Shown piece by piece: positions 1 to 4,748 of a stretch of DNA of 4,748 bases. A model generated the notes under the pieces. That model saw nothing but the letters and a program-made list of their open reading frames with translations. It did no database searches and was not told the origin of the DNA. Within the stretch, counting starts at the first letter, position 1. Every line of letters begins with the position of its first letter. Source of the DNA: a virus (lineage: Duplodnaviria; Heunggongvirae; Uroviricota; Caudoviricetes); the IMG/VR virus record IMGVR_UViG_2660238446_000005, positions 1 through 4,748 of that record, one strand, 5' to 3'. The position numbers and the translations under genes are program-made.

Positions 1-29
1 CGGGCGGTTTTGTCGTTTATGGAGCGTGA
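1..29 (+). CDS. 3' end of upstream tail gene (position of lambda tail assembly protein I); partial, start lies outside window
   Basis: Frame starting at nt 3 is open to the window edge and reads GGFVVYGA before TGA at 27-29, 3 nt ahead of the J start codon. Assignment to I rests on lambda gene order only; 9 codons are too few to identify the protein. Confidence 0.4.
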
Positions 30-32
30 GGA

Positions 33-1160
33 ATGGGTAAAGGCAGCAGTAAGGGGCATACCCCGCGCGAAGCGAAGGACAACCTGAAATCCACGCAGTT
101 GCTGAGTGTGATTGATGCCATCAGCGAAGGGCCGGTTGACGGTCCGGTGGATGGATTAAAAAGCGTGCTGCTGAACGGTACGCCGGTCCTGGACAGCGAG
201 GGGAAGACAAACTTTTCCGGTGTTACGGTGGTGTTCCGTGCAGGTGAGCAGGAGCAGACACCGCCGGAGGGTTTTGAATCCTCCGGCTCCGAGACGGTGC
301 TGGGTACGGAAGTGAAATATGACACGCCGATCACCCGGACCATCACGTCGGCAAACATTGACCGTCTGCGCTTTACCTTCGGTGTGCAGGCACTGGTGGA
401 AACCACCTCAAAGGGTGACCGGAATCCGTCGGAAGTCCGCCTGCTGGTTCAGATACAGCGTAACGGTGGCTGGGTGACGGAAAAAGACATCACCATTAAG
501 GGCAAAACCACCTCGCAGTATCTGGCCTCGGTGGTGGTGGATAACCTGCCGCCGCGCCCGTTTAATATCCGGATGCGCAGGATGACACCGGACAGCACCA
601 CAGACCAGCTGCAGAACAAAACGCTCTGGTCGTCATACACCGAAATCATCGATGTGAAACAGTGCTACCCGAACACGGCGCTGGTCGGCGTGCAGGTGGA
701 TTCAGAGCAGTTCGGTAACCAGCAGGTGAGTCGCAATTATCATCTTCGCGGGCGCATTCTGCAGGTGCCGTCGAACTATAACCCGCAGACGCGGCAATAC
801 AGCGGTATCTGGGACGGAACGTTTAAGCCAGCATACAGCAACAACATGGCCTGGTGTCTGTGGGACATGCTCACTCATCCGCGCTACGGCATGGGGAAAC
901 GTCTTGGTGCGGCAGATGTGGATAAATGGGCGCTGTATGTCATCGGCCAGTACTGCGACCAGTCAGTGACGGACGGATTTGGCGGCACGGAGCCGCGCAT
1001 CACCTGTAACTCTTACCTGACCACACAGCGTAAGGCGTGGGATGTTCTCAGTGATTTCTGCTCGGCGATGCGCTGTATGTCATCGGCCAGTACTGTGACC
1101 AGTCGGTGCCGGACGGCTTTGGCAGCACGGAGCCGCGCATCACCTGTAATGCCTGGCTGA
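33..1160 (+). CDS. J: J N-terminal ORF fragment (375 aa); last 27 residues are out-of-frame read-through of the duplicated segment
   Basis: ORF in frame 0; J-like sequence up to ...[10 protein letters not shown] at 1070, then [26 protein letters not shown] and stop. This is the same locus as the pseudogene call, listed separately in case the two pieces are annotated as separate CDS. Confidence 0.5.
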
Positions 1161-1210
1161 CCACACAGCGCAAGGCGTGGGATGTGCTCAGTGATTTCTG
1201 CTCGGCGATG
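931..1210 (+). repeat. Imperfect direct tandem duplication, 2 x 140 bp, internal to J
   Basis: Unit 1 (931..1070) and unit 2 (1071..1210) align without gaps with 12 mismatches (128/140 identical). The 9-mer cgctgtatg begins each unit and recurs at 1211. 140 is not a multiple of 3. Confidence 0.9.
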
Positions 1211-3652
1211 CGCTGTATGCCGGTATGGAACGGACAGATGCTGACGTTCGTGCAGGACCGACCGTCGGATAAGGTGTGGACCTATAACCGCAGTAATGTG
1301 GTGATGCCGGATGATGGTGCGCCGTTCCGCTACAGCTTCAGCGCCCTGAAGGACCGCCATAATGCCGTTGAGGTGAACTGGATTGACCCGGATAACGGCT
1401 GGGAGACGGCGACAGAGCTTGTGGAGGATACGCAGGCCATTGCCCGTTACGGTCGTAATGTCACGAAGATGGATGCCTTTGGCTGTACCAGCCGGGGGCA
1501 GGCACACCGCGCCGGGCTGTGGCTGATTAAAACGGAACTGCTGGAAACGCAGACCGTGGACTTCAGCGTGGGCGCAGAAGGGCTTCGCCATGTACCGGGT
1601 GATGTCATTGAAATCTGCGATGATGATTATGCCGGTATCAGCACCGGTGGTCGCGTACTGGCGGTGAACAGCCAGACCCGGACGCTGACGCTCGACCGTG
1701 AAATCACGCTGCCATCCTCCGGCACCACGCTGATAAGCCTGGTTGACGGGCAGGGGAATCCGGTCAGCGTGGAGGTCCAGTCCGTCACCGACGGCGTGAA
1801 GGTAAAAGTGAGCCGTGTTCCTGACGGTGTTGCTGAATACAGCGTGTGGGGGCTGAAGCTGCCGACGCTGCACCAGCGATTGTTCCGCTGCGTGAGTATC
1901 CGTGAGAACGACGACGGCACGTATGCCATCACCGCCGTGCAGCATGTGCCGGAAAAAGAGGCCATCGTGGATAACGGGGCACACTTTGACGGTGACCGGC
2001 GCGGCACGGTGAATGGTGTCACGCCGCCAGCGGTGCAGCACCTGACCGCCGAAGTCACCGCAGACAGTGGGGAATATCAGGTGCTGGCGCGATGGGACAC
2101 GCCGAAGGTGGTGAAGGGTGTGAGCTTCCTGCTTCGCCTGACCGTGGCAGCGGACGACGGCAGTGAGCGGCTGGTCAGCACAGCCAGGACGACGGAAACC
2201 ACATACCGCTTCAGGCAGCTGGCGCTGGGGAATTACAGTCTGACAGTCCGGGCGGTAAATGCCCGGGGGCAGCAGGGCGATCCGGCGTCGGTATCGTTCC
2301 GGATTGCGGCACCGGCAGCGCCTGTCACTATTGAACTGATACCGGGGTATTTTCAGATAACGGCGGTCCCGAAACTGGCTGTATATGACCCGACGGTGCA
2401 GTTTGAGTTCTGGTTTTCGGAAAAGCGGATTGCGGATATCAGGCAGGTTGAAACCACAGCACGCTATCTTGGCACGGCGCTGTACTGGATAGCCGCCAGT
2501 ATCAATATCAGGCCGGGCCATGATTATTATTTTTACGTTCGCAGTGTGAACACCGTTGGCAAATCGGCATTTGTGGAGGCCATCGGTCGGGCGAGCGATG
2601 ATGCAGAAGGTTATCTGAATTTTTATAAAGGGTTGATCAATAAAACGCATCTCGGCAAGGAGTTGTGGACGCAGATTGATAACGGTCAGCTTGCGCCGGA
2701 CCTGACTGAAATCAGGACGTCCATTACGAATGTCAGCAATGAAATCACGCAAACCGTCAATAAAAAACTGGAAAATCAGAGTGCTGCAATCCAGCAGATA
2801 CAGAAAGTTCAGGTTGATACAAATAATAACCTGAACAGCATGTGGGCTGTGAAGCTGCAACAGATGAAGGACGGACGCCTTTATATTGCGGGTATCGGTG
2901 CCGGTATTGAGAATACGCCAGCAGGAATGCAGAGTCAGGTGCTGCTGGCGGCAGACAGGATTGCGATGATTAATCCTGCGAATGGCAACACAAAGCCGAT
3001 GTTTGTTGGTCAGGGCGATCAGATATTCATGAACGACGTGTTCCTGAAATGCCTGACGGCTCCGACCATTACCAGCGGCGGTAATCCTCCGGCATTTTCC
3101 CTGACACCTGGCGGACGGCTGACGGCGAAAAATGCCGATATCAGCGGTAACGTGAACGCGAACTCCGGGACGCTCAACAACGTCACGATTAATAAGAACT
3201 GTCGGGTTCTGGGAAAATTGTCCGCGAACCAGATTGAAGGCGATCTCGTTAAAACAGTGGGCAAACCTTTCCCACGGGACTCCCGGGCACCGGAGAGGTG
3301 GCCATCAGGGACCATTACCGTCAGGGTTTATGACGATCAGCCGTTTGATCGGCAAATTGTTATTCCCGCGGTGGCGTTTCGCGGTGCTAAACATGAGCGG
3401 AAGAATAACAATATTTATTCGTCATGCCGCCTGATAGTGAAGAAAAACGGTGCTGAAATTTATAACCGAACGACCCTGGATAATACGCTGATATATACGG
3501 GTGTTATTGATATGCCTGCCGGTCACGGTCACATGACGCTGGAGTTTTCTGTATCGGCATGGCTGGTAAATGGCTGGTATCCCACAGCAAGTATCAGCGA
3601 TTTGCTGGTTGTGGTGATGAAGAAAGCCACTGCAGGCATCACGATTAGCTGA
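1106..3652 (+). CDS. J: J C-terminal ORF fragment (848 aa as called from GTG 1106); contains the putative receptor-binding C-terminal domain
   Basis: Frame 2 ORF. J-like sequence begins inside the second repeat unit (..[44 protein letters not shown]..). No Shine-Dalgarno sequence precedes GTG 1106, so independent translation is doubtful. Stop TGA at 3650-3652. Confidence 0.5.
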
Positions 3653-3670
3653 ATTTTATAACCCAGATAC

Positions 3671-3696
3671 GGGCACCAGAAATGGTGCCTTTTTTA
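3671..3696 (+). terminator. Rho-independent terminator downstream of J
   Basis: Perfect 7-bp stem ggcacca (3672-3678) / tggtgcc (3683-3689) with GNRA-type loop gaaa, followed by T-run tttttt (3690-3695). It lies 19 nt after the J stop. Confidence 0.7.
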
Positions 3697-3719
3697 TTGC
3701 AGAAAAGCGAGAGGTAATT

Positions 3720-4319
3720 ATGCGTAAAGTTTGTGCAGCCATTTTGTCCGCAGCCATTTGTCTGGCCGTATCCGGTGCGCCTGCATGGGCGTCTGAACAT
3801 CAGTCCACGCTGAGCGCCGGGTATCTTCAGACCCATACTGATATGCCAGGCAGCGATGACCTGAAGGGCATTAACGTGAAATACCGTTATGAGTTTACGG
3901 ATACGCTGGGGCTGATTACGTCATTCAGTTATGCCAACGCTGAAGATGAGCAAAAAACGCATTACAGCGATACCCGCTGGCATGAGGATTCCGTGCGTAA
4001 CCGCTGGTTCAGCGTGATGGCGGGGCCGTCTGTGCGCGTGAATGAATGGTTCAGCGCGTATGCGATGGCGGGTGTGGCTTACAGCCGTGTGTCGACTTTC
4101 TCCGGGGATTATCTTCGCGTAACTGACAACAAGGGGAAAACGCACGATGTGCTGACCGGAAGTGATGGCGGTCGCCACAGCAACACGTCTCTGGCGTGGG
4201 GAGCTGGCGTGCAGTTTAACCCGACCGAATCCGTGGCCATTGACCTTGCTTATGAAGGTTCCGGCAGTGGTGACTGGCGCACTGACGGTTTCATCGTGGG
4301 TGTCGGTTATAAATTCTGA
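3720..4319 (+). CDS. lom: Lom, Ail/Lom/OmpX-family outer-membrane beta-barrel protein (prophage lysogenic-conversion gene), 199 aa
   Basis: ATG at 3720 with GAGG at 3711-3714. N-terminal signal peptide MRKVCAAILSAAICLAVSGAPAWA with an AWA-SE cleavage-type site. Near-identical over long stretches to lambda Lom as I recall it (e.g. WHEDSVRNRWFSVMAGPSVRVNEWFSAYAMAGVAYSRV). C-terminus ends ...GVGYKF with a terminal Phe typical of outer-membrane beta-barrels. Same position as in lambda, between J and stf. Confidence 0.9.
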   Translation: MRKVCAAILSAAICLAVSGAPAWASEHQSTLSAGYLQTHTDMPGSDDLKGINVKYRYEFTDTLGLITSFSYANAEDEQKTHYSDTRWHEDSVRNRWFSVMAGPSVRVNEWFSAYAMAGVAYSRVSTFSGDYLRVTDNKGKTHDVLTGSDGGRHSNTSLAWGAGVQFNPTESVAIDLAYEGSGSGDWRTDGFIVGVGYKF

Positions 4320-4345
4320 TTAGCCAGGTAACACAGTGTTATGAC

Positions 4346-4372
4346 AGCCCGCCGGTTCAGGCGGGCTTTTTT
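4346..4372 (+). terminator. Rho-independent terminator downstream of lom
   Basis: GC-rich stem agcccgcc (4346-4353) / ggcgggct (4360-4367), loop ggttca, then T-run 4367-4372. It starts 27 nt after the lom stop. Confidence 0.75.
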
Positions 4373-4383
4373 GTGGGGTGAAT

Positions 4384-4710
4384 ATGGCAGTAAAGATTTC
4401 AGGTGTACTGAAAGATGGGGCGGGTAAACCTGTCGTAAATTGTGCGATTGAACTGCGGGCCAGAAGAACCAGTCCGACCGTTGTGGCACACGTTGTTGCC
4501 ACTTGCGTGACGGACAATAACGGTGCTTATGTGATTGAGGCTGAGCCGGGGTATTACGAGGTTGCGCTTCACTGTAACGGCTGGCAGCCAACCCGTGTCG
4601 GGGATATTGATGTGGCACCGACTGATGCACCGGGGACACTGAACGCGTTTCTGAATGCACCAAAGGATGGTGATTTACGTCCGGAGGTGATGAAGTGTCA
4701 GCGCCAGTGA
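4384..4710 (+). CDS. Side tail fiber (Stf)-like N-terminal domain protein, 108 aa; apparently truncated relative to lambda Stf
   Basis: ATG at 4384 preceded by gggg at 4375-4378 (an in-frame GTG at 4378 is an alternative start). The N-terminus MAVKISGVLKDGAGKPVVNCAIELRARR... resembles the lambda Stf N-terminus (MAVKISGVLKDG...), and similarity continues to about ...DGDLRPEV. TGA at 4708-4710 follows; the other two frames also hit stops within about 30 nt. Confidence 0.6.
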   Translation: MAVKISGVLKDGAGKPVVNCAIELRARRTSPTVVAHVVATCVTDNNGAYVIEAEPGYYEVALHCNGWQPTRVGDIDVAPTDAPGTLNAFLNAPKDGDLRPEVMKCQRQ

Positions 4711-4748
4711 TATAAGACGGTAATTCGCCATTTGGATTGTCCGCTCCA

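Follow-up and report, generated by a model that had tools for sequence, protein, structure and literature searches.

Does a J gene that begins almost exactly like that of phage lambda also end like it, and if it does not, which outer-membrane receptor would its product recognise? This question is raised by the IMG/VR virus record IMGVR_UViG_2660238446_000005, of which we analysed positions 1 to 4748 (the whole 4748-bp stretch is called the window below). An exact-protein look-up identified the window as the entire contig CXFO01000210.1 of the Shigella sonnei draft assembly GCA_001252515.1. A first-pass annotation of this DNA had proposed that J is a mosaic, with a swapped receptor-binding module at its 3' end that probably recognises something other than LamB. 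In our opinion the best explanation of the whole locus, to which we assign a probability of roughly 85%, is a decaying lambda-like S. sonnei prophage whose J consists of exchangeable modules and ends in a receptor-binding domain (RBD) of the OmpC-using class known from the engineered proteins 1A2 and A8.

J departs from lambda J in two separate segments

As assembled, J is interrupted by a 140-nt tandem repeat, which is discussed below. For the comparison with lambda gpJ one of its copies was removed, giving a protein of 1159 residues. Residues 1-815 of this protein are 95.6% identical to lambda gpJ. Identity falls to 31.4% over residues 816-920, where the alignment has 27-28 gap columns caused by a 27-residue insertion in the window, returns to 83.8% over residues 921-1000 and falls again to 41.2% over residues 1001-1159. 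This profile agrees well with the first-pass annotation, which had described J as close to lambda gpJ before about position 2590, divergent past it, similar again over a conserved block and only loosely lambda-like at the C-terminus; identity above 90% at that end, named beforehand as the contrary outcome, was not seen. At the nucleotide level the changes are abrupt, with steps near 2610, 3000 and 3180: identity to lambda does not fall below 87% before ~2610 and does not exceed 40% at 2670-2820; it is then 83-93% at 3000-3180 and 30-73% beyond.

The cryo-electron microscopy parts of lambda gpJ are hub domains, two FNIII domains, an alpha-helical shaft (which includes residues 841-861), a central straight fibre and the RBD; the straight fibre is a beta-sheet prism, and four distal loops of the Ig-like RBD enter LamB (PMC11101478). 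When aligned with these parts, the first divergent segment of the window corresponds to the helical shaft and the top of the central fibre, the conserved block to the straight fibre, and the last segment to the RBD (coordinates are collected in Table 2). The hub and Ig region is 88-100% identical to lambda in successive 40-residue stretches, and the fibre block is 79-99% identical to all other J proteins compared. All six J families of Pfam (FNIII-A_GpJ, Phage-tail_3, Ig_J, Ig_J_second, Phage_Tail_Tip and Ig_GpJ_C) were found in order and above their curated cut-offs, with expect values (E) of 1e-31 to 1e-43; the match to Phage_Tail_Tip spans about 2786-3172, and that to Ig_GpJ_C, described as 'C-terminal receptor binding domain', covers about 3260-3649 (E 2e-36). 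An AlphaFold2 (AF2) model is helical at residues ~811-888, with low confidence (predicted local distance difference test, pLDDT, of 50) and from a shallow alignment of near-identical homologues.

Base composition changes along J as well. The GC content is 0.586 at 33-2589 and 0.494 at 2590-3652 (chi-square p 4.7e-07), in line with the AT-richer 3' third noted in the first-pass annotation, though the drop comes in two troughs and is not uniform: GC is 0.454 at 2620-2932, recovers to 0.554 at 2933-3172 and is again low, 0.490, at 3173-3652. The two troughs coincide with the two divergent segments, and the flat profile along J that would have spoken for the opposite was not observed. The same pattern is present in third codon positions, with GC of 0.69, 0.54, 0.65 and 0.54 across the N-terminal part, the first divergent segment, the conserved block and the last segment, respectively, so amino-acid composition alone is insufficient to account for the drop. 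In lambda J the GC content dips in these segments too, but less deeply (0.584, 0.504, 0.562 and 0.543).

Shaft and receptor-binding domain assort independently

We aligned J genes with that of the window segment by segment (Table 1). One RBD type was found on differing backbones and shafts, and one shaft variant was found with differing RBDs; this independent assortment of shaft and RBD is seen across lambda, PhiR70_1, PhiR55_1, VT1-Sakai and Stx2a_JNE122137. With identity and GC both stepped, the J gene is a mosaic, as had been proposed for it, and its modules assort independently.

Table 1. Amino-acid identity (%) of J proteins to J of the window, by segment
J protein	N-terminal	Shaft	Fibre	RBD
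lambda	95.6	31.4	83.8	41.2
PhiR55_1	96.2	89.5	95.0	91.8
PhiR70_1	96.0	89.5	95.0	61.6
Stx2a_JNE122137	72.7	51.4	78.8	91.8

It might be supposed that the gene was inherited vertically, and that its AT-richness and divergence merely reflect local amino-acid composition together with faster drift under selection. Indeed, Asn, Lys, Gln, Ile and Thr are abundant in the shaft segment, and the GC content of lambda J also dips in both segments, to 0.504 and 0.543 from 0.584. We nevertheless consider this very improbable, as third-position GC falls too (0.54 vs 0.69), the two variable segments are paired differently on different backbones, and the identity steps are sharp, with an 83-93% identical block between them. 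A GC shift caused purely by amino-acid composition was rejected on the third-position values and on the module assortment.

To return to the mosaic, the conserved fibre block is probably the homologous anchor for module exchange. Lying between two variable segments, it would offer a site at which homologous recombination could swap RBDs between prophages, and swapping of modules at this block would explain why identity and GC both change in steps. It needs to be mentioned that 'swapped' denotes here a relation between alleles and not a direction; it does not imply that lambda is the ancestor.

The C-terminal domain resembles receptor ends that use OmpC

A search of the last 353 residues of J against the Protein Data Bank (PDB) gave as the best match 9wca, 'A8 gpJ 713' (E 5e-124), ahead of lambda gpJ (E 1e-100). 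The title of entry 9wcb is 'Open state of A8 gpJ 713 central tail fiber with OmpC G17 from E. coli EDL933', and the structure contains three OmpC chains. Both 1A2 and A8 are lambda gpJ chimeras, made by fusing C-terminal parts of natural gpJ variants to lambda gpJ (Brodel et al., Nature 2024, PMC11338833). In tests with a strain that lacked both lamB and ompC and was supplied with OmpC variants, both were shown to use OmpC in place of LamB; A8 delivers via the K-12 and the EDL933 OmpC, 1A2 via the EDL933 variant only, and together they covered 21 of 23 OmpC variants (PMC11338833). The OmpC assignment is repeated in a later preprint.

Over its last 175 residues, J of the window is 92.6% identical to P0002, a natural allele of the 1A2 type, 67.8% identical to A8 (64-68% for the RBD overall) and 46.3% identical to lambda; the RBD of 1A2 itself, stitched together from tblastn pieces of the gene printed in the supplement, matches P0002. 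Measured against lambda gpJ residues ~974-1132, the LamB-binding RBD, identity was low (the 41.2% over residues 1001-1159 given above). The close homology of this domain to OmpC-using RBDs is thus plain, and it supports assigning the RBD of the window to the OmpC-binding class of 1A2 and A8 rather than to lambda's LamB-binding type. The earlier suggestion of a receptor other than LamB thereby gains a more precise form, as the RBD is 41-46% identical to that of lambda, and in the comparison of its last ~350 residues with characterised J proteins the OmpC-using A8 comes ahead of lambda gpJ. An RBD that still binds LamB was rejected on this 41-46% identity and on the experiments with 1A2 and A8.

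Several points weigh against this assignment. The sequence of 1A2 comes from a supplement damaged by optical character recognition, and its identity with P0002 is therefore reconstructed and not exact. Between the window and the 1A2-type allele there are 13 substitutions in 175 positions, and five of these lie in one cluster (RKNNN vs KEHTD). An AF2 model of the RBD reached a pLDDT of 62, again from a shallow alignment of near-identical homologues; its top Foldseek hits were 9wca and 9wcb (E 7e-13, template modelling score ~0.49, large root-mean-square deviation), a match that largely reflects sequence similarity, and models with pLDDT of 62 and 50 are too poor to place contact loops or to serve as separate support for the fold. 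The RBD of phage 434 is only 42.5% identical to that of the window, though phage 434 is a reported OmpC user; OmpC users therefore do not all belong to one sequence class, and the RBD class alone is no proof of the receptor. As assembled, moreover, J would not give a single continuous protein. Binding of OmpC by this particular allele, and the OmpC variants that it would accept, are inferred from its sequence.

Natural alleles of this RBD class vary most at J residues 1076-1080 (positions 3398-3412), which read RKNNN in the window, the other forms being RENND, KEHTD and REHTD; the position after 'AVAF', which flanks it, is also variable, being R, S or C. The RKNNN stretch could be a receptor-contact loop that tunes the range of OmpC variants.

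One may then ask whether the RBD has the fold class of 1A2 and A8 while its allele recognises a receptor other than OmpC (e.g. OmpF), or only a narrow set of OmpC variants. Five of the 13 differences from the 1A2-type allele do fall together in the most variable stretch of the class, 1A2 and A8 already differ in the OmpC variants they accept, and point mutations in lambda gpJ can shift it towards OmpF (PMC11101478). On the other hand, the module is 92.6% identical to one that uses OmpC, and A8, only ~67% identical to 1A2, is still an OmpC user. We regard such a change of receptor or narrowing of range as improbable, and retain OmpC as the likely receptor.

The receptor-binding domain of the window is the common type

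A genome was counted as carrying the RBD type of the window when at least 80% of the query was matched. This type is present in 3350 of 5426 complete E. coli genomes (about 62%), at a median of two places per genome, and its shaft segment type in 3547 of them. Lambda RBD DNA was detected in 98 of the same 5426 genomes, always at 99% identity or more and never in a locus of the window's type; among the matches listed, the five carriers of the lambda-type RBD were laboratory or (DE3) strains. According to these counts, the RBD type of the window is the norm and that of lambda the exception.

Phage records divide in a similar manner. There are 57 at 88-95% identity to the RBD of the window (Stx1a and Stx2a phages, PPompW prophages, VT1-Sakai and several PhiR phages), 89 at 60-65%, which are of the A8 type, and 96 at about 41-44%, lambda and phage 434 included; phage D2, a single record, matched 69% of the RBD query at 51% identity. 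A homologue search listed only fragments that were 92-98% identical, and one at 77% owing to an internal duplication; it informed on prevalence and on variation among alleles, not on wider diversity.

As assembled, the reading frame of J is broken by a 140-nt tandem repeat

In one respect the first-pass annotation did not hold: J had been taken as a single gene at 33..3652. In place of the one reading frame of about 1130-1160 codons expected of a lambda-type J, the list of open reading frames (ORFs) divides the span 33-3652 into 33..1160 and 1106..3652, the frame being shifted by an imperfect 140-nt tandem repeat. Since 140 is not a multiple of 3, the second copy throws J out of frame, and ORF 33..1160 closes with 29 out-of-frame codons and a premature stop; the remainder of J is read from 1106 or later. 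Deletion of either copy restores an intact 1159-aa ORF.

The two copies are not alike in origin. Copy 1 shows 2 differences from the one repeat unit in J of E. coli FDAARGOS_943 and encodes the variant present in all other S. sonnei J proteins read. Copy 2 is closer to J of PhiR70_1 (5 differences) than to that of FDAARGOS_943 (10 differences). With 12 of 140 positions differing between the copies, and each copy resembling a different J allele, simple replication slippage was rejected as the origin of the duplication. The 10-mer GCGCTGTATG occurs at 930, 1070 and 1210, so that it opens each copy and follows the second; ordinary J genes contain it twice, 140 nt apart.

A 44-mer across the duplication junction had no match in the genome and viral contig collections, and complete E. 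coli genomes, queried with 161 nt spanning the junction, yielded two-piece, out-of-order matches only, with no tandem copy. The frameshifted J product is recorded solely on this contig. Other S. sonnei assemblies have either an intact 1159-aa J or, in many cases, contigs broken within J at residues ~377-447, and these breaks suggest several J-like copies per genome.

On one hand, the duplication might be an artefact of assembly or gap closing in a short-read draft, the real genome having an intact 1159-aa J. We give this only slightly less than an even chance. The window coincides with a complete contig (4748 bp) in a draft assembly, the product and the junction 44-mer were found nowhere else searched, the tandem arrangement is absent from all complete E. 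coli genomes searched, the intact or contig-broken J genes of other S. sonnei point to a region tangled by repeats, and the two copies derive from different alleles. Some gap-closing tools join ends that overlap by as little as some 10 nt, and the shared 10-mer has exactly this length. On the other hand, the junction lies exactly in a 10-nt direct repeat, GCGCTGTATG, that is naturally present twice at a distance of 140 nt in J genes, as one would expect had two resident J alleles undergone a real unequal crossover mediated by microhomology. The 10-mer is also much shorter than usual assembler k-mers, and S. sonnei is rich in pseudogenes and insertion sequences (IS), the stf gene of the same contig being truly disrupted by one. 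The draft status of the contig, the uniqueness of the product and the intact or broken J genes elsewhere in S. sonnei are compatible with crossover and artefact alike.

A further proposal takes the duplication to be a real microhomology-mediated unequal crossover at GCGCTGTATG between two J alleles of one S. sonnei chromosome and holds, separately, that RKNNN marks an OmpC-variant specificity beyond those of 1A2 and A8; taken as a whole, it seems to us possible but unlikely. If true, the crossover would be a case of inter-prophage recombination caught in the act of inactivating a tail gene.

As written in the contig, the system is dead, with J frameshifted by the duplication and stf truncated by an IS21-family element. 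The J copy as assembled would not yield a functional tail tip and is probably non-functional.

Irregular J genes occur elsewhere too. J of VT1-Sakai/Sp15 (L003, locus 1591-5063), the Stx1 prophage of E. coli O157:H7 Sakai, consists of two overlapping coding sequences annotated as 'truncated by a mutation'; it is split at a position similar to the break in the window, while its span of 3473 nt leaves no room for the 140-nt duplication. An E. coli J fragment, P0003, has an internal 30-residue tandem duplication in the RBD, which is either a duplication within J or an assembly problem. J pseudogenes seem to be common in resident prophages.

The window is the tail-tip end of a decaying prophage

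The window covers the tail-tip end of a lambda-like S. sonnei prophage that is decaying, with J, lom and stf in this order (Table 2). The layout matches that of lambda, and also that of prophages with L, K and I genes upstream. The closest complete genomes are 97.6-97.9% identical over the window, and carriers of ipaH or of a large IS-rich plasmid are among them (FDAARGOS_943, CFSAN029787).

Collinearity with stf of FDAARGOS_943 stops at 4695, and stf is truncated after codon ~106 by the left end of an IS21-family element. Positions 4692-4748 match at 100% a stretch of 57 nt located ~50 nt upstream of istA in an IS21-like element of plasmid pCFSAN029787_01, and only the first 53 nt of the IS21-family element are inside the window. 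This end sequence has 2944 matching places in E. coli records, mostly on plasmids. The window starts 32 nt before the J start codon and ends inside the IS, so both of its ends are probably at repeat boundaries.

Table 2. Features of the 4748-bp window
Feature	Position	Strand	Basis
J N-terminal ORF, 375 aa	33..1160	+	residues 1-346 lambda-gpJ-like; Pfam FNIII-A_GpJ, E 1e-42
Imperfect 140-nt tandem repeat, copy 1	930..1069	+	repeat search; starts with 10-mer GCGCTGTATG
Imperfect 140-nt tandem repeat, copy 2	1070..1209	+	12/140 positions differ from copy 1
J hub and two Ig/FNIII-like domains	1210..2619	+	Pfam Phage-tail_3, Ig_J, Ig_J_second; ~96% to lambda gpJ; GC ~0.59-0.65
First divergent AT-richer segment of J, residues 816-920 (lambda alpha-helical shaft and top of central fibre)	2620..2932	+	alignment
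Conserved block of J, residues 921-1000 (central straight fibre, beta prism)	2933..3172	+	within Pfam Phage_Tail_Tip match
RBD, J residues 1001-1159 and stop codon, 1A2/A8 OmpC-binding class	3173..3652	+	Pfam Ig_GpJ_C; sequence identity
lom-like outer-membrane beta-barrel gene, 199 aa, intact	3720..4319	+	Pfam Ail_Lom, E 4e-129, full length; synteny
stf (side tail fibre), N-terminal part, cut at 4695/4696	4378..4695	+	Pfam phage_tail_N, E 1e-36
IS21-family IS, left end, 53 nt; truncates stf; contig ends inside	4696..4748	+	

A putative tail tip of exchangeable parts

Taken together, an intact J of this type would consist, in order, of a near-lambda hub with Ig/FNIII domains, a longer and AT-richer variant of the alpha-helical shaft, a conserved central straight fibre and a C-terminal Ig-like RBD. 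By analogy with lambda and LamB and with A8 and OmpC, the distal loops of three RBD copies would enter an OmpC trimer. This contact would then twist the central fibre and flip the helical shaft, which would open the tail tip for DNA ejection; this triggering mechanism is likewise borrowed from the related systems.

A mosaic J with a receptor end of the OmpC class is known biology, already exploited in engineered lambda particles. Exchange of the J receptor end among lambdoid phages is well known, the RBD class has been mined, engineered (1A2, A8) and assigned to OmpC, and A8 has been solved in complex with OmpC, so the present case carries little weight as a discovery. Its value is a practical one for annotators: where J is of this very common type, it ought to be labelled OmpC-type and not LamB-type. 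The contig also illustrates that frameshifts in multi-copy prophage genes can be concealed or introduced by short draft contigs.

Comparison with known systems

Lambda gpJ (PDB 8iyk, 8xck, 8xcj) shares with J of the window its position after I and before lom and stf, its set of Pfam families, the N-terminal part (95.6% identical) and the fibre (83.8%). The shaft of the window is, in contrast, 31% identical to that of lambda and 27 residues longer, its RBD is 41-46% identical, lambda's RBD binds LamB (PMC11101478), and the window copy is frameshifted.

The RBD of chimera 1A2 and of its natural source alleles (e.g. P0002, J of VT1-Sakai/Sp15, PPompW prophages, Stx1a and Stx2a phages, and PhiR55_1) is 91-94% identical to that of the window over the last 159-175 residues. 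The window differs from 1A2 in 13 substitutions, RKNNN/KEHTD included, and in that 1A2 keeps the lambda shaft and fibre whereas the window has a non-lambda shaft.

Chimera A8 (9wca, closed; 9wcb, open with EDL933 OmpC) has a homologous RBD (64-68%) and is the best match of a solved structure to the C-terminal 353 residues. It nevertheless represents an allele class of its own, which compared with the window lacks 4 residues at one place and has 5 extra residues at another, and it has a broader OmpC range that includes the K-12 OmpC; for A8, binding of OmpC has been shown both functionally and structurally. J of Escherichia phage PhiR70_1 (L005, locus 1082-4564), with an RBD 99.4% identical to that of A8 and a shaft of the window's type, is a natural counterpart of A8.

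Finally, the central tail fibre of phage 434 (OL657227) is also a lambda-like J, and its host range is reportedly OmpC-dependent (PMC11101478). Its RBD, 42.5% identical to that of the window, nonetheless belongs to a different RBD class.

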